A DNA stretch of 64,000 bases, taken from contig JAGHHZ010000024.1 in assembly GCA_017887425.1 (NCBI GenBank), forward strand, positions 49,534 through 113,533, written 5' to 3'. The notes beneath the pieces were generated by a model, which worked only from the letters and a program-made list of their open reading frames with translations, ran no database searches and was not told the origin of the DNA. Position 1 is the first letter of the stretch. Every line of letters starts with the position of its first letter. Source of the stretch: Bacilli bacterium (GTDB lineage Bacteria; Bacillota_I; Bacilli_A; RF39; UBA660). Below, in pieces: positions 17,478 to 34,661 of the stretch. The position numbers and the translations under genes were made by a program.

Positions 17478-17676
17478 TGGTATAATATAGATGTCTAGGG
17501 ATAGCGACAAGCTCATTTAGAAAAACCGACTAATTAACGAATATTGGGAATCTAATTCATCAACGGTGTTGAATGCTCAATTAATTTTGAGAATCCTAAA
17601 GTTGATGATGTGATGCCCACCTGGTAGAGACTAGGTTTTATCGTTAAGGGCCCGCATTCTTGGACTTTTTTTTTTG
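17478..17676 (+). ncRNA. Candidate small RNA or structured transcript (~180 nt) with its own extended -10 promoter and a terminal T-tract
   Basis: TGgTATAAT extended -10 at 17478..17486. The non-coding stretch has GC-richer islands (gatgcccacctggtagag, gggcccgc). It ends in a T10 run at 17666..17675. A separate TATAAT promoter for tkt follows. Confidence 0.35.
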
Positions 17677-20780: not shown

Positions 20781-22268
20781 GTGGAGTTAGTTTTACCTAA
20801 AAGTAATAATACTGCTGAAAATAAAAAATTATTTGAGCAACTTAATAGTGGTAATCTTTCAATACGTAATAAAATTATTGAAAAAAATTTAAGATTAGTT
20901 GAAATGACTATTCAAAAAAAATTACCAGATTTTTCTGATTTACCATATATGGATAAAGAAGATTTATTTGAAATTGGATGTATTGGATTAATCAAGGCTG
21001 TTGATAGTTACGATTTAGATAGAGGAAAAGCCTTTTCAGCTTATGCAGTTATTTGTATTAGAAACGAAATATTAATGTATTATCGAAAAAACAAAAAGTT
21101 AAGTTTAATTGATAGTTTAAATGAAAATGTTAGTGAAGAAGATGAACGAAGTAAAGTTGAACTTTTAGTATCTAATGAAGAAAGCATCGAAGATCAGTAT
21201 ATTCAAAAAGAAACTAGTATAGAGATGTTAGAACATTTATCTTGTCTAACAGAAATAGAAAAGAAAGCAGTTAAACTCTACTATGGTTTTGGAGAACGAC
21301 GATTTACTGACCGAGAAATTGCTCAAGAATTAGGATATTCACAATCTTATATAAGCAGAATATTAAAAAAAGCTCGACATAAATTAAAAGATTTGCTGGA
21401 AAATAAATCTTTTAATGAAATAGTTCAAGAGGAATATAGTTTTGAAGTTTCTGATGCATTCGCACTATTTAGTGAATATCCTCGAGCTAAAATTATTAGA
21501 ACAATTAAGAAGTTACCTAAGGCAAAAAGAAAATTGTTTTTAGATTGTTATCCAATTAATGGTAAATATGGATTAACATTTAAAGAAGTTTGCCAAAAAT
21601 ATAATTTATCTAGTAAAGTTTTATTAAGAAAATTAGATAAAATTAAAGAAGAAATTTTATTTTTAATTATACAAGATCAAAGAAAAACTAGACAAGTAGA
21701 TATTTTTAAACAACTTCCTGATTATCCAAAAGAAAAAGTACTTGAAGCAATTCATATGCTAGAAGAACCTAATCAAACTATTTTCACTCTACGTTATGGA
21801 ATTGATAGAAAAAATCAACTTAGTGTTGAAGAAATAGTTTCTAAACTAGAAGGAAAAGAATTAGATATTCCTTTAACACCTGAAAGTGTTATTAAAAATT
21901 TATTTGTATCTAGACAGACAATAAAAAGACTGGTTCAACAAGGAAACGGTATCAAAATAAAAACTAATTTTTTAAATTCTGAAGAGTTATTTTTTTCTAA
22001 TTTTCCTGGTTATTCTAAAGAACAAGTTTTATCACTATTTCCTAATTTATTAGAGCGAAGAAGAATAATAGTAGAATTGTGCTTTGGCTTAAATGGTAAT
22101 GAGACAAAAAGTATCAAAGAAATAGCTATAATGATGGGGTGCAGTCAAAAAGAAGTTAAACAAAGAGTAGAATATGTAATAAAAGTTTTGAATAAACAGT
22201 TAAAAGATCGGTATAAAGAGCCAGAAGATAGTAAAGTTTTGACTAAGAAAAAAGTTGAAAAAAGATAA
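20781..22268 (+). CDS. Sigma-70 family RNA polymerase sigma factor with three additional C-terminal region-4-like HTH modules (495 aa)
   Basis: Region 2 (LRLVEMTIQKK...EDLFEIGCIGLIKAVDSYDLDRGKAFSAYAVICIRNEI). Region 4 (LTEIEKKAVKLYYG...TDREIAQELGYSQSYISRILKKARHKL). Three further repeats share the region-4 pattern (LPKAKRKLFLDCYP...FKEVCQKYNLSSKVLLRKL; TIFTLRYGID...SVEEIVSKLEG; RRIIVELCFGLNG...IKEIAIMMGCSQKEVKQRVEYVIKVL). GTG start after AGGCAGGTGG. Confidence 0.7.
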   Translation: MELVLPKSNNTAENKKLFEQLNSGNLSIRNKIIEKNLRLVEMTIQKKLPDFSDLPYMDKEDLFEIGCIGLIKAVDSYDLDRGKAFSAYAVICIRNEILMYYRKNKKLSLIDSLNENVSEEDERSKVELLVSNEESIEDQYIQKETSIEMLEHLSCLTEIEKKAVKLYYGFGERRFTDREIAQELGYSQSYISRILKKARHKLKDLLENKSFNEIVQEEYSFEVSDAFALFSEYPRAKIIRTIKKLPKAKRKLFLDCYPINGKYGLTFKEVCQKYNLSSKVLLRKLDKIKEEILFLIIQDQRKTRQVDIFKQLPDYPKEKVLEAIHMLEEPNQTIFTLRYGIDRKNQLSVEEIVSKLEGKELDIPLTPESVIKNLFVSRQTIKRLVQQGNGIKIKTNFLNSEELFFSNFPGYSKEQVLSLFPNLLERRRIIVELCFGLNGNETKSIKEIAIMMGCSQKEVKQRVEYVIKVLNKQLKDRYKEPEDSKVLTKKKVEKR

Positions 22269-25222: not shown

Positions 25223-25297
25223 GCAGGTGTAGTACAGCGGTTAGTATACGGCCTTGCCAAGGCTGGGACGGCGGTTCGATTCCGCTCACTTGCTCCA
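25223..25297 (+). tRNA. tRNA-Gly (anticodon GCC)
   Basis: Hand-folded cloverleaf. Acceptor stem GCAGGTG/CACTTGC, D-arm, anticodon stem CGGCC/GGCTG with loop TTGCCAA, T-loop GGTTCGATTCC, discriminator U and an encoded CCA. Confidence 0.9.
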
Positions 25298-26357: not shown

Positions 26358-26548
26358 CTAAAGATAAATTAGAATTATCTTTTTTGATTTCAAAAAATAT
26401 TTCTTTTAAATTATTATTCATTATTCATCTCCAACTTTCTAAATATCTTTTATTATACAATTTTTATTACGAAAATAAAAGAAAAATTTATCTTTTCTAA
26501 TTAACAAAAATGTGTTATAATTTTAAACGGGTTGAAGGAGTGAATAAA

Positions 26549-27955
26549 ATGAAAAAAACTAAAATAATTTGTAGTATTGGACCTGCTAGTAGCAATCCTG
26601 ATATTATGTGTGAAATGGTAAAAAATGGAATGAACGTAGCTAGAATAAATTTCTCTCATGCAACTTTGGACGAAAGAAAAGAAGTTGTAAGTTCAGTAAA
26701 AAAAGTAAGAGAGATGACTGGTGAAAATGTCGCAATTTTATATGATACTAAAGGACCCGAATTTAGAAATGGTGTTTTAGAAAACGATCAAATAAATTTA
26801 GTTGAAGGAAAAACAATTAGAATTGTTAAAGAAAAAGTTTTAGGTAATGAAGAAAGATTTTCTGTTAACCATCCTAATGCTATTGACTCTATCAATATAG
26901 GTGATCGTATTCTATTAGAAAATGGATTAATGAGTATCGAAGTTATTTCTAAAGAAGAAGATGGTCTTACTTGCAAAATAATTGTTGGGGGAGTATTAGG
27001 TAACAAAAAAAGCTTAAGTGTTCCTGGTGTTCATTTAGACATGCCATTTGTTAGTGAAGAAGATAAAGCTGATATTATTTATGCTTGCGAACACGATGGT
27101 GATTTTTTAGCTTTATCATTTGTCTCAACGAAAGAAGACGTCTTACAAGTTAAAGAGATTTTAAAAGAACACAACCGTACTGATATGAAATTAATTGCTA
27201 AAATAGAAAGTACAACTGGAATTGAAAACTTAGATGAAATTGCAACTGTTGTCGATGGTATTATGGTAGCAAGAGGCGATTTAGGTGTCGAAGCGGCGAT
27301 GGAAGATTTACCAATCTTACAAACAAAAATAATTGAATGTTGCCGTAAACATGGTAGATTTTGTATTGTGGCCACTGAAATGTTAGAATCAATGAAAAAA
27401 AACAATCGTCCTACAAGGGCTGAAGTTTCCGATGTCGCTAATGCCGTTATTAACGGAACTGATGCTGTTATGTTATCTGGTGAAACAACAGTAGGAAAGT
27501 ATCCAGTGGAAACTGTAAAATGTATGGCTAATATTTGTGAAAATATTGAAAAACATTTAGATTATAAAATAAATAATGAATATATTAAAAAATCAATTGA
27601 TGGAGCTATTGCTTCTAATGTTGTCGAAACAGCTTCTTTATTAGATGCTAAATTAATTGTAGCTACTACTATGAGTGGTAAAACAGCCGCTAGAGTTAGT
27701 AATTTAAGACCAAAATGTTTAGTTTTGGCTACATGTCCAAATGAAAAAGTAGCAAGATCATTAGCTTTAAATTTTGCTGTTTATCCAGTTGTTACAAGTG
27801 TTTTTGATTCGATTGATAAAATAGTAGAGGATGCTAAAATTAAAGCTATTGATTTTGCTAATTTAAAAGAATCTGATATTATTTTAATAACTGGTGGTTT
27901 TTATAATGACCCTGAATTTAAAGGAACTAATTTTATGAAGATTGAAAGAATATAG
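26549..27955 (+). CDS. pyk: Pyruvate kinase (canonical paralog)
   Basis: All canonical motifs are intact (ARINFSHA, DTKGPEFR, AKIEST, MVARGDLGVE, ATEMLESM, MLSGETTVGKYP). The start is placed at the Met after GGAGTG. Confidence 0.92.
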   Translation: MKKTKIICSIGPASSNPDIMCEMVKNGMNVARINFSHATLDERKEVVSSVKKVREMTGENVAILYDTKGPEFRNGVLENDQINLVEGKTIRIVKEKVLGNEERFSVNHPNAIDSINIGDRILLENGLMSIEVISKEEDGLTCKIIVGGVLGNKKSLSVPGVHLDMPFVSEEDKADIIYACEHDGDFLALSFVSTKEDVLQVKEILKEHNRTDMKLIAKIESTTGIENLDEIATVVDGIMVARGDLGVEAAMEDLPILQTKIIECCRKHGRFCIVATEMLESMKKNNRPTRAEVSDVANAVINGTDAVMLSGETTVGKYPVETVKCMANICENIEKHLDYKINNEYIKKSIDGAIASNVVETASLLDAKLIVATTMSGKTAARVSNLRPKCLVLATCPNEKVARSLALNFAVYPVVTSVFDSIDKIVEDAKIKAIDFANLKESDIILITGGFYNDPEFKGTNFMKIERI

Positions 27956-27969
27956 TTTATTCTTTTTTT
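27946..27969 (+). terminator. Rho-independent terminator after pyk
   Basis: AAGAATA-tagtt-TATTCTT hairpin followed by T6. It overlaps the stop codon. Confidence 0.55.
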
Positions 27970-28026
27970 CTTGACTAAAACGGCGATATATCTTATAATT
28001 AATATAAGAATAAAGGGATGATAACC

Positions 28027-29442
28027 ATGAACAAAACTAAAATAATTGCTACTATAGGACCAGCTACAGCTAACCGTGAAGCTTTGAAATCTTTGATTAT
28101 TAATGGTGTTGATGCTTTTAGAATTAACATGACTTATTCTAGTTTGAATTTTTGTGAACAAATTATCGATATGATAAACAGTTTAAATACAATGTTAAAA
28201 ACTTATGTTGCAGTTATTTTAGATGTCAAAGGACCAACTATTAAAGTGGGACGAATTTCAAATGGTAAAGCTTTTTTAAGACAAGATGACAAAATAAGAA
28301 TATTTATGGATCCGGTTCTAGGAGATTGCACAAAATTTAGTGTTGACTACCCTGATTTAGTTAACGATGCAATTTTAAATTCTATTATTGAGGTGGATAA
28401 TGGAAATGTTGAATTACAAGTCTTAGATAAAGGCGATGATTATTTATTGTGCAAAGTTTTAAAAGAGGGAACAATTGAAGATAATAAGACTGTTAATTTA
28501 CCCAATATTAAATTAAATCGAAAATTTTTAAGTGAGCAAGACAAAGAAGTAATTAGGTTCGCTAATCGAAAAAATGTTGACTTTTTAGCGCTTTCTTATG
28601 TATCTAGTTCTGATGATGTTTTAGAGGTAAATGATTTATTAATAAACTTAGGTAATGATCATTTGCAAATTATATCTAAAATCGAAAACAATTATGCTTT
28701 AGATGATATTGATAACATTATTAAAGTTAGCGATGGAATTATTATCGATCGAAAAGATTTAAGTGTGGAAGTACCTTTAGAAAAAATACCAGGCATTCAA
28801 AAAAAGATTATCTCTAAATGTCATGCTAAAGGTGCTATCAGTATTGTGGCCACTGACTTATTATCTGCAACACACACCAATAGTTATCCTACTAGAGCAG
28901 AAGTATCTGATATTGCCAATGCTGTTTTAGATGGTACTGATACAATTATGTTATCTGATGAGACAACAATTGGTACCAATCCAATTGAAACTTTAAAATT
29001 ACTAGAGAAAATTATTCACACAGCTGAAGAAGATATCGATTATGAATATATGTTAGAGCAGTCTATTAAAACAGAAAAAAGAGATGCTACGGGTTCTTTA
29101 GCTTATAGTGTAGCAGGGTGTGCTTTAAGGTTAAAGTGCAAAGCCATTTTTACGCCAACGATGAGTGGTTATACTGCTAAAAAAATCAGTCGTTTTAGAC
29201 CGCTTTGTCCAATTATCGCACCTAGTCCTAATATTGATACTACTAAATCTTTAGCTCTTAATTTTGGTGTATATCCAATTTTAATCGAAGATTTAAAAAG
29301 CTTAGATGCGATTATTGAAAAGAGTAAAAAAATAGCGCAAGATGTTTTGCTACTAAAAGAAAAAGATAATATTATTATTACTGGTGGCTATCCATTTAAA
29401 AAAATAAAAAGTACTAATTTTATGAAGATAGAAGAAATATAA
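28027..29442 (+). CDS. Pyruvate kinase-like paralog with substitutions at conserved substrate-binding positions
   Basis: Same fold and length as pyk. Motifs are degenerate (FRINMTYSS, DVKGPTIK, IIDRKDLSVE, ATDLLSAT, MLSDETTIG), while KIEN and PTRAEVSD are retained. Confidence 0.75.
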   Translation: MNKTKIIATIGPATANREALKSLIINGVDAFRINMTYSSLNFCEQIIDMINSLNTMLKTYVAVILDVKGPTIKVGRISNGKAFLRQDDKIRIFMDPVLGDCTKFSVDYPDLVNDAILNSIIEVDNGNVELQVLDKGDDYLLCKVLKEGTIEDNKTVNLPNIKLNRKFLSEQDKEVIRFANRKNVDFLALSYVSSSDDVLEVNDLLINLGNDHLQIISKIENNYALDDIDNIIKVSDGIIIDRKDLSVEVPLEKIPGIQKKIISKCHAKGAISIVATDLLSATHTNSYPTRAEVSDIANAVLDGTDTIMLSDETTIGTNPIETLKLLEKIIHTAEEDIDYEYMLEQSIKTEKRDATGSLAYSVAGCALRLKCKAIFTPTMSGYTAKKISRFRPLCPIIAPSPNIDTTKSLALNFGVYPILIEDLKSLDAIIEKSKKIAQDVLLLKEKDNIIITGGYPFKKIKSTNFMKIEEI

Positions 29443-29453
29443 GGGGTGAAATT

Positions 29454-31841
29454 ATGTATAATTTAGGAGAACAATTTAAAATTGATTATGAGACAGTAAT
29501 GCCTAATCAAGAAGCCATTCTTCAAGGTCAAAAATATCGTTTTACTGTTTTAAGTGAACGTTTAATTAGAATTGAGTATCGTGAAAACGGTGTTTTTAAT
29601 GATGAATTAACTGAATTAGTTAGAAATCGTAATTTTCCAAAGCCAAAATTTGAAATTAAAGAAGATAGGAATTATCTCGAATTAACGACACCATACTTTA
29701 AACTTTTTTATGCCAAGGAGACTAAGATAAACAATAGTAAAAATTTTTATGTTCAAGTTTTAAATACAGATAGAAGTTGGCATTATAACCATGTTGAGGC
29801 AAAAAACTATAGTGCACCAGTCCTAATTGAAAAAGGTAAAATCGAAAATACCAAAAGTTTATATTCTTTAGATGGCTTTGTTTCAATTGATGATTCCAAA
29901 GGGAAAATTGTTACACCTGATGGTATAATTAAAGAAAATACTTATGAAGGAATCGACATTTATCTATTTGTTTATGTAAATGATTTTGATTTATGTTTGA
30001 AAGATTATTTCAATTTGACTGGTCATCCAGCATTAATTCCGAGATTTGCTTTGGGAAACTGGTGGAGTCGAAATAACGAATATGATGATACATCTTTAAA
30101 AGAATTAGTTGATAATTTTGTTCATCATAAAATTCCAATTTCGATTGTTTTATTAGACAAGGATTGGCACATTCGTACTTATAAAGATAAAGAACATTTA
30201 AAAACAGGATTTACTTTTAATAAAGAATTATTTAAGGCTCCTTATGAAATGATTAGTTATCTTCATTCTCAGGGAATTAGAGTTGGCTTAAATATTAATC
30301 CAACTGAAGGATTTTACAACATTGATGAATATTATGAACAAGCTAAAAAATATCTTACTCCTGATGAAAATGGAGTAATTCCTTATAATGTTTTAGATCC
30401 AAAGTGGATAGATGTTTATTTAAAAATATATATTCATCCATTAGATGCTTTAGGTGTAGACTTCTATTGGTTAGATTGTTATGACCGTAAAAATATCGAA
30501 CAAGATTATCTATTAAAACATTATCAATTTTATGATATGGAAAGAAACTACAAACGTCGTCCAATGGTTTTGGGATATAATGCCGGTCTTGCCCAACACC
30601 GCTATCCTGTATTATACGCTGGTAAAACAGTTGTTAGCTGGAATTCATTAAAACAAATCCCTAAATATAATGCTAGTGCTACTAATATTGGTATAACTTG
30701 GTGGAGCCATGACATTGGTGGTTATTTTCAAGGTGTTGAAGATAATGAATTATATACAAGGTATGTTCAATTAGGAACATTCTCTCCAATTTTAAAATTT
30801 GGAGCTGATAATGGTAAATATTATAAAAGAGAACCTTGGCGTTGGAGTGTTAAAACATTTGGTATTGTTAAGGATTACCTAGAACTAAGACATAAGTTAA
30901 TTCCTTATTTATATAGTGAAGCTTATAAATATAGTAAAGATGGAACTCCTTTAATAAAACCAATATATTATATCGCTCCAGAAATGTATGATGATTTATT
31001 ATATAGTGATGAATACTATTTTGGTAGTCAATTCTTTATTTGTCCGATTACTAAGAAAAAAGATTATGTTATGAATCGTGTTGTCCATAGATTTTATATG
31101 CCAGAAGGCATATGGTATGATTTCTTTACCGGTAAAAAATATCCAGGTAATAATAATTATGTATCTTTCTATAAAGATCAAAATTATCCGGTATTTGCTA
31201 AAGCAGGAAGTATTATACCTTTAGGGTACAATGATAACATCAACGATACAACGCCACCTAAAAATATGGAAATTCATTTTTTCCCTGGTATTAGTAATGA
31301 ATATTTACTATATGAAGATGACGGACTATCTAGTTTATATAAAAAAGGATTTTATTTATTAACTAAAATCGAATATAATTATATGCCAAGTAATTATACA
31401 GTAATAATTCGGGCTTTAGAAGGAAAGAGTGGAATAGTTCCAGATTATCGTAATTATAAATTGATATTTAGAAATGCTAAAAAAGCCACTGATGTTATTG
31501 TATATGAAAATAAAGAAGAAATAAAATGTAAATCATATGTATCAGGTCCAGACTTTATCGTTGAAATTGAAAATGTTCGTTCAATTGGTCAGTTAACAGT
31601 TAACTGTAAAGGTAAAGATATCGAATTTGATCCAACTCGTTTAATTAATGATGATATTGCCGGTATCCTAGATGACTTACAAATCGAAACTTTAATGAAA
31701 GAAAAAATCGATGCTATTATTTTTGCCGACATGCCAATTAAGAAGAAAAGAATAGCTATTAGAAAATTACGAAGAAAAGGTCTAGAACGTAAGTTTATTA
31801 AATTATTCTTAAGATTACTAGAATATATTGGTACAGTTTAA
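29454..31841 (+). CDS. Large glycoside hydrolase, GH31-like (alpha-glucosidase/alpha-xylosidase-like), 795 aa
   Basis: WWSHDIGGYFQG resembles the GH31 G-[AF]-D-[IV]-[CG]-G-F signature and a (beta/alpha)8-type central region. The nucleophile region YWLDCYD is non-canonical compared with WIDMNE. Confidence 0.45.
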   Translation: MYNLGEQFKIDYETVMPNQEAILQGQKYRFTVLSERLIRIEYRENGVFNDELTELVRNRNFPKPKFEIKEDRNYLELTTPYFKLFYAKETKINNSKNFYVQVLNTDRSWHYNHVEAKNYSAPVLIEKGKIENTKSLYSLDGFVSIDDSKGKIVTPDGIIKENTYEGIDIYLFVYVNDFDLCLKDYFNLTGHPALIPRFALGNWWSRNNEYDDTSLKELVDNFVHHKIPISIVLLDKDWHIRTYKDKEHLKTGFTFNKELFKAPYEMISYLHSQGIRVGLNINPTEGFYNIDEYYEQAKKYLTPDENGVIPYNVLDPKWIDVYLKIYIHPLDALGVDFYWLDCYDRKNIEQDYLLKHYQFYDMERNYKRRPMVLGYNAGLAQHRYPVLYAGKTVVSWNSLKQIPKYNASATNIGITWWSHDIGGYFQGVEDNELYTRYVQLGTFSPILKFGADNGKYYKREPWRWSVKTFGIVKDYLELRHKLIPYLYSEAYKYSKDGTPLIKPIYYIAPEMYDDLLYSDEYYFGSQFFICPITKKKDYVMNRVVHRFYMPEGIWYDFFTGKKYPGNNNYVSFYKDQNYPVFAKAGSIIPLGYNDNINDTTPPKNMEIHFFPGISNEYLLYEDDGLSSLYKKGFYLLTKIEYNYMPSNYTVIIRALEGKSGIVPDYRNYKLIFRNAKKATDVIVYENKEEIKCKSYVSGPDFIVEIENVRSIGQLTVNCKGKDIEFDPTRLINDDIAGILDDLQIETLMKEKIDAIIFADMPIKKKRIAIRKLRRKGLERKFIKLFLRLLEYIGTV

Positions 31842-31917
31842 ATTTTATTTGGATATATTATAAAATTATTGAATTTATTGTTAATTTATAATATAATAAG
31901 AGCATAGTTTTAAAATT

Positions 31918-32286
31918 ATGTTCTTTTTTTGGAGAGTGAATAATATGGTATATTTAATAAGTTTTGTTATCGCATTTTTGATTGTTTATTTGTTTTATTT
32001 TTTTACAGTCATTCTGCAAAAGAAAAAATACGATAAATTTAAAAAAAGTAATCAAGTTATGTACTTTGTTAATCGTTATAAATTAAATGTTAATAAAATA
32101 AATATAAAAAAATTTATTCATATTATCAGTTTAACAAATTCTTTAATAATAGCAATTGCTTTTACAGCTACATTTTTAGTAGAAAACATTTTATTACAAT
32201 TATTAATTGGATTACTTGTTTTAATACCATTAATATTAATTAGTTATAGTTTGATTGGAATTTATTTAAAAAAGGAGTGTCAATAA
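31918..32286 (+). CDS. Small hypothetical membrane protein
   Basis: Two or three predicted TM helices. Its end overlaps the leuS start. No motifs recognised. Confidence 0.35.
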
Positions 32287-34661
32287 TGAATACAAAAGAA
32301 ATAGAAAAAAAATGGCGTAAATATTGGGAGGAAAATAAAACTTTTAAAACTGATGTCTGGGATTTTAGTAAGCCTAAGTTTTATGCTTTGGATATGTTTC
32401 CTTATCCATCTGGTCAAGGATTACACGTTGGTCATCCAGAAGGATATACTGCTACTGATATTGTTTCAAGAATGAAGAGAATGCAAGGATATAATGTATT
32501 ACATCCAATGGGCTTTGATGCTTTTGGATTACCAGCTGAACAATATGCTATCAATACGGGAAATCATCCGGAAGGATTTACCTTAAAAAATATTGCTACA
32601 TTTACAGAACAATTAAAAATGTTAGGTTTTTCATTTGATTGGGATCGCGAAGTTTCAACATGTGATCCAAGTTATTATAAATGGACACAGTGGATTTTTA
32701 GTGAGTTATATAAAGATGGTTTAGCCAAACAAATTGAAATGCCTGTTAATTGGTGTCCAGAACTTGGAACAGTTTTAGCTAATGACGAAGTAATTGATGG
32801 TAAAAGTGAAAGAGGAGGATTCCCTGTTATTCGTAAAAATATGAAACAATGGGTAATCGATATCCCTAAATATGCTGAAAAGTTATTATCAGGATTAGAT
32901 ACCATCGACTGGCCAGAATCAACTAAAGAAATGCAAAAAAATTGGATTGGTAAATCAGTTGGTGCTCACGTTAAATTTAAGGTTAATGAAGATGAATTTA
33001 CTGTTTTTACAACAAGATGTGATACTTTATTTGGAGCAACTTATTGCGTCCTTGCTCCAGAACATGATTTAGTTGATAAAATAACAACTGAAGAATATAA
33101 AAATCAAGTTTCAGAATATAAAAAAATATGTGCTTCTAAATCAGAATTAGAAAGAACAGAACTAAATAAAGAAAAAACAGGTGTTTTTACCGGTGCTTAT
33201 GCTATTAACCCTGTTAATGGTAGAAAAATACCTATTTGGATATCAGACTATGTTTTAGCAACTTATGGAACAGGTGCTATTATGGCTGTTCCTGCTCACG
33301 ATGAAAGAGATTATGAATTCGCTAAAAAATTTAATCTAGAAATTATTCCCGTTATCGATGGTGGTGATATATCTTGTGAAGCATATGTCGGTGATGGATT
33401 ACATATTAATTCTGAATTTTTAAACGGATTAAATAAAGAAGATGCAATTAATAAGATGATTGATTGGTTAGAAGAAAATAACTTAGGAACTAAACACATT
33501 AACTATCGTTTAAGAGAATGGATTTTTGCGCGTCAAAGATATTGGGGTGAACCAATCCCAATTATTCATCTAGAAAATGGTCAAGATATATTAGAAACTA
33601 ATTTACCTTTAGTTTTACCAGAATTAGAAGATTATAGCCCATCTAAAGATGGCGCATCACCACTAGAGAAAGCAACTGACTGGGTTAATGTTGAAGTAAA
33701 TGGTATAAAAGGAAAAAGAGAAACATCAACTATGCCAGGATCTGCTGGCTCAAGTTGGTACTTCTTAAGGTATATTGATCCACATAATGATAAAGAAATA
33801 GCTGATAAAAAATTAATTGAACATTGGATGCCAGTTGATTTATATATTGGTGGACCAGAACATGCGGTTGGACACCTATTATATTCTCGAATGTGGAACC
33901 ACTATTTACACGAAAAAGGAATTGTTAATGTTGCTGAACCATTTCAAAAATTATTTCATCAAGGTATGATATTAGGTTCAAATAATGAAAAAATGAGTAA
34001 ATCAAGAGGTAATGTTGTCAATCCAGATGATATAATTAACGAATATGGTGCGGATACATTAAGATTATATGAAATGTTTATGGGACCACTTGAAATGAGT
34101 AAACCTTGGAGTGAACAAGGTGTAGCTGGCGCTCATCGTTTTATTGAAAGAGTATACCGCTTATATACTGAAGGTAACATCAAAGATGAAGAAAATAAAA
34201 ACTTAGAAAAAATATATCATCAAACAGTTAAAAAGGTAACTCAAGATTATGAAACTTTAAACTTCAATACAGCGATTAGTCAAATAATGATTTTTGTTAA
34301 TGCCGTTTATAAAGAAGAAATATTCCCATTAGAATATGCTAATAACTTACTTAAATTATTAAACCCTGTTATTCCATTTATTACTGAAGAGTTATGGAAT
34401 AGATTAGGTCACAATGATACTATTGCTTATGAGACTTGGCCTACTTATGATGAAGAAAAAACAAAAGAAGAAATGTTCGAAATGGTCGTTCAAGTTAATG
34501 GTAAAGTAAGAGGTAAAATTAGTGTTAGTATGGATACTCCTAAAGAAGAAATGGAAAGTTTAGCTAAAGAATTAGAAAATGTTAAAAGATATATTGAAAA
34601 TAAAGAAATTGTTAAAGTTATAACAGTTCCTAAAAAATTAGTCAATATTGTTATAAAATAA
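32286..34661 (+). CDS. leuS: Leucine--tRNA ligase
   Basis: HIGH region [21 protein letters not shown] ([10 protein letters not shown]), and editing CP1 domain. The Met at 32286 follows AAGGAG. Confidence 0.93.

Follow-up and report, generated by a model that had tools for sequence, protein, structure and literature searches.

Why should a bacterium keep two pyruvate kinase (PK) genes side by side, and what has become of the second? The question is raised by a 64,000 nucleotide stretch of the Bacilli bacterium assembly GCA_017887425.1 (contig JAGHHZ010000024.1, positions 49,534–113,533; hereafter the window), in which two such genes, PK1 (26549–27955) and PK2 (28027–29442), lie head to tail where a preliminary description of the sequence had placed them. 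That description regarded the second copy as degenerate at its substrate-binding residues and proposed a neofunctionalised enzyme or a regulatory pseudo-enzyme. From the comparisons given below PK2 is probably a glycolytic enzyme which is turning into a regulatory or re-purposed protein; it is neither a redundant housekeeping copy nor a decaying pseudogene. The most informative piece of context is its invariable pairing with an atypical gene of glycoside hydrolase family GH31.

Both proteins are recognised by the PK profiles. PK1 scores 359 bits against PF00224, 80 bits against PF02887 and 509 bits against TIGR01064, the corresponding values for PK2 being 290, 97 and 438 bits; both exceed the PK equivalog cutoff of TIGR01064 (306 bits). 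Full-length identity between the two is 39%. The AlphaFold2 (AF2) model of PK2 (predicted local distance difference test, pLDDT, 89.3; predicted template modelling score, pTM, 0.88; PK1 model, pLDDT 91.4) possesses the three-domain PK fold and matches solved PKs with Foldseek TM scores of 0.85–0.95. Confidence in the PK2 model is low at residues 281–290 and 311–320 (block means of 61, with residues 314–316 below 50). Since PK1 also dips at these blocks (80 and 69), this is only a mild hint of active-site disorder.

PK2 was aligned to the PKs of G. stearothermophilus and S. aureus, and the numbering of the rabbit muscle enzyme was transferred. The first copy had been called canonical, and PK1 is indeed so at all 20 active-site positions; among its orthologs (120 clusters, 70–99% identical) these positions are invariant with a single exception. 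In PK2 the altered motifs RINMTYS, DVKGPTIK, DRKDLS and MLSDET are present exactly as first reported, and the KIEN and PTRAEVSD segments are kept. The substitutions are S76T, H77Y, T113V, E117T, R119K, T120V, A292D, G294K, G297S, E329D and G362D. The changed residues are not side-chain ligands of phosphoenolpyruvate (PEP) or the metals. PK2 retains all such ligands, including the nine residues essential for catalysis (R72, N74, D112, K269, E271, D295, T327, S361 and E363), as well as K114, K206 and R293, and the changes affect second-shell, backbone-contact or nucleotide-pocket positions.

The degeneracy that had been claimed for these positions is real for only some of them. In a survey of 137 diverse PK representatives, one per 50%-identity cluster, G294 is found in 135, R119 in 135, A292 in 133 and H77 in 129, where PK2 has K, K, D and Y, respectively. 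The first three are, in addition, invariant among 20 diverse genomic PKs. Judged against these sets the genuine anomalies of PK2 are H77Y, R119K, A292D and G294K, which lie outside normal PK variation. H77Y and R119K fall in the nucleotide pocket, and A292D and G294K beside the PEP-carboxylate and Mg2+ site, the carboxylate presumably being bound in PK structures by the backbone amides of G294 and D295. In characterised enzymes R119 hydrogen-bonds the ADP β-phosphate, K206 touches the ribose and His77 lines the adenine pocket (PMC8835810).

Roughly half of the positions first listed as degenerate represent ordinary PK variation, positions 113, 117 and 362 among them. Residues 113 and 117 vary among active PKs (PMC4374775, PMC4284704). 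The K+ ligands are the T113 carbonyl, S76 O-γ, N74 and D112 (PMC4284704), and positions 113, 117 and 120 form a signature of K+ dependence, active K+-independent PKs having Leu113, Lys117 and a hydrophobic residue at 120, and activity is also known for crenarchaeal PKs whose residue 117 is Ser, Val, Gln, Asn or Gly (PMC4374775). With V113, K114, T117 and V120, PK2 does not carry the K+-dependent signature (T113, K114, E117, T120), to which PK1 conforms at three of four positions (T113, K114 and E117, with Asn at 120; DTKGPEFRN). Of the K+-independent signature PK2 possesses the hydrophobic residues at 113 and 120 and the acidic residue at 362; Lys117 and Gln114 are absent. In the 137-PK survey residue 362 is acidic (Asp or Glu) for 22 of 81 Lys/Arg117-type PKs versus none of 48 Glu117-type enzymes (Fisher p = 1.4e-5, without phylogenetic correction).

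Protein searches show that PK2 is the local member of a lineage-specific, PK-derived clade of uncultured gut Bacilli. At least 120 clusters (90% identity) are 59–99% identical to PK2, and all of them come from metagenomes or metagenome-assembled genomes (MAGs) labelled Bacilli, Tenericutes or Mollicutes. Metagenomic proteins may hold errors; the same residue states recur in independent assemblies. The clade is present in about 17 species-representative genomes, including Candidatus Faecisoma merdavium and Acholeplasma sp. CAG:878. NCBI places Faecisoma in Mycoplasmatota incertae sedis, and we take the genomes carrying PK2 to belong to the GTDB order RF39. A recent tandem duplication as the origin of the pair is not supported, given 39% identity, separate clades in a neighbour-joining (NJ) tree and a PK1–PK2 distance about equal to that from PK1 to the PKs of other phyla.

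Within the clade Glu117 is gone from nearly all members, being replaced by L, T, I, N or V, and T113 is mostly Ile. Thirty clusters constitute a derived subclade with the co-varying residues Y77, K119, D292, K294 and D329, and usually D362. In the NJ tree, which is approximate and unreliable at its deep nodes so that the deep branching order is unresolved, this subclade nests within PK2-type sequences which still bear ARGDLG and MLSGET, and the PK1 orthologs are separate. Each of 15 non-redundant members of the subclade has Y77, K119, K294 and D329, and 14 of them have D292. Other residues are eroding in the same 15 proteins: K206 remains in 10, R72 and T327 in 12 each, and D295 in 13.

At least one of the nine essential residues has been lost in 16 of the 120 clusters of the PK2 clade. 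Three species genomes with intact PK2 open reading frames (ORFs) illustrate this: locus L016 has E271Q; L022 has R72K, E271D, R293Q and D295S together with a deletion in the MLSGET motif; and L023 has D295N, E363G and R119Q. The nearest relatives outside the clade, 40–48% identical, are of full length (~470 residues) with a fully dead active site, as in P0241 (KINMNDV / RIDN / DRNSLS / MINEEV) and P0243, which ends ILGINP. If a pseudoenzyme is recognised by the loss of indispensable residues, L016, L022, L023, P0241 and P0243 are such proteins and the PK2 of the window is not. The C domain of P0241 is 60% identical versus 32% for the N-terminal A segment, and in P0245 the C domain is likewise the best conserved.

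A still more divergent PK-like ORF of 471 residues was seen in another Bacilli MAG (L037, CALVIA010000035.1, 3966–5381). It is 36% identical to PK2, nearly all of its motifs are destroyed (GINLLFS, ETKGSNIM, CRDELS, FLKNCI), and it has neither GH31 nor PK1 adjacent to it.

Selection was gauged from pairwise Nei-Gojobori ratios of nonsynonymous to synonymous substitution (dN/dS), which are approximate, dS being near saturation for distant pairs. PK2 is under clear purifying selection, with dN/dS of 0.05–0.19 within the derived subclade and rising to 0.27 between L022 and L006, the two loci furthest apart (dS ~0.3–1.1 in the PK2 comparisons). Among the closest relatives of the window its dN/dS is about twice that of PK1 and of GH31. 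Where the constraint falls in the protein was determined by splitting both paralogs into domains over the same eight matched genomes. For PK1 the dN/dS values are 0.09 (A-N), 0.12 (B), 0.09 (A-C) and 0.22 (C); for PK2 they are 0.27, 0.28, 0.16 and 0.086, respectively. In the PK2 clade, then, selection has shifted from the catalytic A and B domains onto the C-terminal domain, and the catalytic domains are under relaxed or re-modelled constraint. Since dS is indistinguishable between domains (0.74–1.03), this inversion is a property of the protein, and gene conversion or an overlapping constraint at the nucleotide level is ruled out as the cause of C-domain conservation.

The identities tell the same story, being 0.88 in PK2 versus 0.75 in PK1 for the C domain, and 0.65–0.75 versus 0.82–0.87 for the A and B domains. 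This most constrained part of PK2, the effector-binding and tetramer-interface domain, comprises residues ~336–471 (29029–29439, + strand). Two segments are near-invariant in the PK2 subclade and variable in the PK1 orthologs: the loop TMSGYTAKKISRFRP and the C-terminal loop and strand ITGGYPFKK.K.TNFMKIEEI. We take the former to be the effector phosphate-binding loop, and the ITGGYPFKK segment to be the effector loop and last strand, as in PKs generally.

Two observations on PK1 belong here. Between the window (26549–27955) and locus L001 (341–1744) its dS is 0.42, the adjacent PK2 and GH31 genes giving 1.02 and 0.88, which suggests a recent exchange of PK1 alone or a stronger synonymous constraint upon it. 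At L019, on a 6.2-kb MAG contig (CAADZW010000124.1, 2320–6201), identities to the PK1, PK2 and GH31 of the window are 91%, 71% and 75%. The PK1 of this locus nests among the closest relatives of the window in the tree and its PK2 does not; this incongruence could be due to recombination between PK1 and PK2 or to a chimeric contig.

The GH31-family gene of the window (29454–31841, +, 795 residues) starts 11 nucleotides past the PK2 stop codon. A GH31 gene of about this size follows each PK2-type gene examined at a distance of 10–27 nucleotides, despite differing flanks, and the pairing holds also for dead PK-like genes (L065, L066) and when approached from distant GH31 orthologs (L069–L072). 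The loci found without an adjacent GH31 gene, L025 (49% identical) and the above-mentioned L037, are both outside the PK2 clade. Because the pairing persists where the PK-like protein is dead, it points to a function other than PK catalysis. At L069, a basal member of the GH31-linked pair, the PK is fully canonical, Glu117 included (DTKGPEVRI); the pairing is therefore older than the degeneration of the PK.

The GH31 protein is itself unusual. Its best solved homolog is the Lactococcus α-1,3-glucosidase LlGH31_u1 (E = 1e-121). The nucleophile of that enzyme, Asp341, is kept in the motif FYWLD, and its general acid/base, Asp394, aligns with Lys391 of the window protein (HRYPVLYAGKTVVSW; ~30624–30626). 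In 120 clusters of orthologs Asp never occurs at the acid/base position: 116 have Lys there, three have Arg and one has Pro. The nucleophile is retained in 117. The family requires two catalytic Asp residues, and as one of them is replaced this is not a standard retaining glycosidase. Its dN/dS is 0.04–0.13 in most comparisons and 0.18 against the most distant locus, L006 (a value of 0.42 for L016 is an alignment artefact), and so low a ratio indicates that replacement of the acid/base is a selected state, not decay. Some GH3 enzymes became phosphorylases through a non-acidic residue in place of the acid/base carboxylate.

Loss of the nucleophile Asp was seen at L065 (5035–7461, to N), L066 (2223–4604, to K) and L027 (11428–13812, to N). 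The GH31 genes of L065 and L066 adjoin completely dead PK-like genes, which hints that catalysis may have been lost in a coupled manner in the two partners.

At least 12 species-level genomes have PK1 directly upstream of PK2, and six others lack it within 10 kb. One metagenome sample contains a PK1 ortholog on a different contig from its PK2–GH31 locus (L010), the genes upstream of that ortholog matching those of the tandem locus L006; PK1 and PK2 can thus coexist unlinked. The idea that a PK2-type gene lacking PK1 as a neighbour supplies the only PK of its genome is weakened by this sample.

The window has a G+C content of ~27%. PK1 (+, ATG at 26549, 468 residues) consists of the PK barrel and PK_C domains without an extra C-terminal domain, and is preceded by the ribosome-binding site (RBS) AAGGAG (26535–26540, +), read from the sequence 8 nucleotides before the ATG. 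PK2 (+, 471 residues, MNKTK...), whose catalytic core is kept, has the RBS AAAGGGA (28012–28018, +), likewise read from the sequence and kept in orthologous loci. Its ORF formally opens at 28018; the RBS and the alignment favour the ATG at 28027. The account of two complete genes, each with its own RBS, is thereby confirmed.

The terminator which had been placed between them is less clear-cut. A scan of the PK1–PK2 spacer for a G+C-rich consensus terminator gave no match, and what is present is a weak, A+T-rich hairpin of 9 bp with a T-run (27944–27969, +), resembling an intrinsic terminator, in which the PK1 stop codon TAG occupies the loop. This element was detected only by folding (27944–27966, ΔG −12.2 kcal/mol, z = −3.6) and by comparison across loci. 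A like hairpin and T-run folds in most of 12 tandem loci, with altered arm sequences in several; five of the 12 fold weakly in the spacer (−4.8 to −6.9), and L006 has a different hairpin further downstream, beyond the stretch that was folded.

Directly after this hairpin comes a σ70-type promoter (TTGACT-17-TATAAT, 27971–27999, +, 11 of 12 matches). It was found in all 12 tandem loci, conserved as CTTGACT-N17-TATAAT, and as TTGACT-N17-TATAA(T/A) in five of six examined loci without an upstream PK1, the sixth (L008) having only a degenerate −35 element. The conserved leader before PK2, AGAATA(A/G)A(A/G)GG, is also much alike in loci without an upstream PK1. A terminator-like hairpin of 12 bp with a U-run after GH31 (31898–31931, +; ΔG −10.5 kcal/mol, z = −2.6) is probably the end of the transcription unit. 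From these conserved signals and the spacing we infer that PK2 and GH31 form a putative bicistronic unit with its own promoter. Codon usage (C-ending two-fold codons and the choices for Lys, Glu, Gly and Arg) is indistinguishable between PK1, PK2 and 18 other window genes; it is uninformative as a proxy for expression because mutational bias dominates.

Downstream of GH31, in the window and in many related loci, there is a small hydrophobic ORF without family match (31918–32286, +, ~113–122 residues; likely start ATG 31945 after the RBS GGAGAG), always just before leuS. The leucyl-tRNA synthetase of the window (32277–34661, 794 residues) has no NUDIX match, and those downstream of the PK-like/GH31 pair in L069 (7989–10808) and L071 (8007–10850), of 939–947 residues, have an internal one.

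Since its genes include those for a penicillin-binding protein, MraY, FtsW, a Mur ligase, transketolase, RelA/SpoT and several aminoacyl-tRNA synthetases, the window is a chromosomal housekeeping region of a walled bacterium. A 6S RNA (RF00013, 72 bits) occupies 17489–17670 (+), its last bases overlapping the start of the listed transketolase ORF (TTG 17660). A tRNA gene (25223–25294, +) lies between a Ca2+/Na+ antiporter gene and the minus-strand HD-domain gene which precedes PK1. At 20781–22268 (+) is encoded a σ70-family protein of 495 residues, the first 205 of which contain regions 2 and 4, with another region-4-like match at 414–463; it is an unusually long, possibly duplicated or fused sigma factor.

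What, then, is PK2? It is hardly credible that it is a redundant duplicate becoming a pseudogene. It does evolve faster than PK1 and GH31, and catalytic residues are lost in relatives, but an intact 471-codon ORF is found at each locus examined, the promoter and RBS are conserved, the clusters span 59–99% identity, and a decaying pseudogene is ruled out by the dN/dS values (0.05–0.19 at dS of ~0.3–1; 0.086 for the C domain). The reading which we prefer, and to which we would give a little short of an even chance, is that PK2 may be a PK-derived protein, maintained by selection, whose catalysis is weak or absent and which acts via its effector and oligomerisation domain. This retains part of the original proposal of a regulatory pseudo-enzyme, in that relaxed catalytic constraint and residue loss in relatives fit it; the window copy, which keeps its catalytic side chains, does not. 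A number of points weigh against our preference. All nine essential residues and K206 are kept, and the changes at 113, 117, 120 and 362 are normal in active K+-independent PKs (PMC4374775 and the 137-PK survey). Strong C-domain constraint would equally be expected of an isozyme strictly needing an allosteric activator (compare PMC5501398). In the subclade conservation is higher for the active-site set (0.87) than for the A/B background (0.78; permutation p ~0.02), although the changed positions alone are not. As this set is conserved and K206, R72, T327 and D295 nevertheless erode, the cleft is still under some selection, though not for the full catalytic apparatus. Furthermore, PK2 has its own promoter, with a hairpin between it and PK1, and for the PK2-type genes without an adjacent PK1 the co-occurrence of PK1 rests on the one metagenome sample.

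Several of these points would suit a true second PK isozyme, K+-independent, perhaps with another nucleotide preference, tightly activator-dependent and co-expressed with a sugar-utilisation gene, PK1 being the constitutive enzyme. We consider this doubtful, and yet it accounts for the retention of every catalytic side chain, the TIGR01064 score above cutoff and the confidently modelled PK fold. Positions 113, 117 and 120 carry the hydrophobic K+-independent signature, and activity is known from crenarchaeal PKs in which 117 is Ser or Val (PMC4374775); an acidic residue at 362 is characteristic of the Lys/Arg117 type (22/81 versus 0/48); obligatory allosteric control would fit a strongly conserved effector domain; Vibrio cholerae exhibits the same division of labour (PMC5501398); and basal GH31-linked members such as L069 are fully canonical. 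What an isozyme leaves unexplained is that G294K, A292D and R119K have next to no counterpart among 137 diverse PKs, that within the same genomes the catalytic domains change two to three times as fast in PK2 as in PK1, that close relatives with intact ORFs have repeatedly lost essential residues, and that the lid lysine K206 is gone in five of 15 subclade members. Alternatively, PK2 might be a neofunctionalised enzyme which keeps the PEP/Mg2+ half-site, uses another phosphoryl acceptor or substrate and is coupled to GH31, where Lys in place of the acid/base Asp could suit a leaving group or nucleophile that is anionic, phosphate for example. Six co-varying fixed substitutions do occur close together, in the nucleotide pocket and next to the PEP site, with the ligands of PEP and the metals unchanged; the PK2–GH31 operon is conserved in both directions; the state of the GH31 acid/base (Lys or Arg in 119 of 120) and nucleophile (117 of 120) looks selected rather than decayed; and the two dead PK-like genes both stand beside a GH31 gene whose product has lost its nucleophile, a hint that the catalytic roles are coupled. 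In one variant of this idea Lys294, Asp292 and Asp362 would create an internal cation, a third solution to the monovalent-cation requirement, and acidic 362 does correlate with an internal cationic residue in ordinary PKs. We regard neofunctionalisation as rather improbable all the same: the data name no candidate substrate, constraint peaks in the C domain rather than in those that form the active site, and both partners persist as intact ORFs after catalytic residues are lost, which suggests a non-catalytic role.

Should PK2 be the weakly catalytic or non-catalytic protein that we favour, a plausible history would run as follows. The GH31-linked PK would be ancestral and would have had a second, C-domain-dependent role, and selection on catalysis would have relaxed once PK1 was present. 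PK1, as the housekeeping PK, would have taken over the bulk of the flux from PEP to pyruvate. PK2 would mainly be a ligand-binding, oligomerising regulator with weak or no ADP-dependent PK turnover, and would probably use its conserved effector loop to sense a phosphorylated metabolite. Its action would be directed at, or exerted together with, the putative GH31 partner, or else it would co-assemble with PK1.

It is a bolder and, in our estimation, unlikely proposition that the PK-like protein and GH31(Lys) constitute an undescribed two-protein module of uncultured gut Bacilli, the two enzymes of which have both taken on new tasks. In one possible, catalytic version GH31 would work with a nucleophile or leaving group that is anionic, of the phosphate type, and PK2 would supply, sense or transfer the PEP phosphoryl group to a non-nucleotide acceptor; were this true, Lys294, Asp292 and Asp362 would represent a new internal-cation solution for PK chemistry. 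Another possibility is a non-catalytic version, a sugar- and metabolite-sensing complex which would control glycolytic flux through PK1.

PK is among the most conserved and best-studied of enzymes. The clade presents a graded series, from canonical proteins through loss of the K+ determinant and a remodelled active site to fully dead ones, throughout which purifying selection and one partner gene persist. This series makes it testable how a central enzyme gains or keeps a non-catalytic or new role after a paralog takes over housekeeping. There is also a consequence for annotation in these abundant, uncultured, reduced-genome gut bacteria. Because the proteins pass the pyruvate kinase and GH31 models, metabolic reconstructions would count a second PK and an α-glucosidase which perhaps do not exist functionally.

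Literature searches for bacterial PK pseudoenzymes, for PK regulatory subunits or paralogs and for PKs of RF39 found no relevant description. The canonical bacterial PKs (EC 2.7.1.40; S. aureus 3T05, G. stearothermophilus 2E28) share with PK2 the three-domain fold (37–38% identity, TM 0.89–0.90). Unlike them PK2 lacks Glu117 and His77, has Lys119, Asp292 and Lys294, and displays an inverted constraint profile. The extra C-terminal PEP-utiliser-type domain is absent from both PK2 and PK1. With the K+-independent PKs (the Lys117 cluster and Crenarchaeota; PMC4374775, PMC4284704, PMC8835810) PK2 has in common hydrophobic residues at 113 and 120 and the lack of Glu117, and its acidic 362 is also found in many Lys/Arg117 enzymes. 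It differs from them in having Thr117 rather than Lys or Arg, Lys114 rather than Gln, and the additional changes G294K, A292D, R119K and H77Y.

For the GH31 partner the comparison is with its nearest characterised relative, LlGH31_u1 (PDB 7WJ9–7WJF), the D394A mutant of which is inactive (PMC9061262). Its nucleophile Asp341 and WWSHDIGG motif are conserved in the window protein, whereas its Asp394 is Lys391 there.

Two systems with paired PKs offer a parallel. According to the passage in PMC13409958 which cites Andre et al. 2007, the α and β paralogs of plant plastid PK co-assemble, and one of the subunits depends on the other for being stable and active. On that account two diverged PK paralogs coexist, as here, and there is a precedent for a PK paralog as partner subunit; the plant proteins are eukaryotic and their assembly is experimental, whereas PK1 and PK2 are known from genes, and are probably transcribed separately. 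In Vibrio cholerae VcIPK is K+-dependent and constitutive, and VcIIPK is K+-independent with allosteric activation essential (PMC5501398). The likeness lies in the presence of a Glu117-type and a non-Glu117 PK in one genome, with a possible split into constitutive and effector-controlled enzymes. Both Vibrio enzymes, however, are active and keep the invariant motifs, whereas the PK2 clade erodes or loses its catalytic residues.

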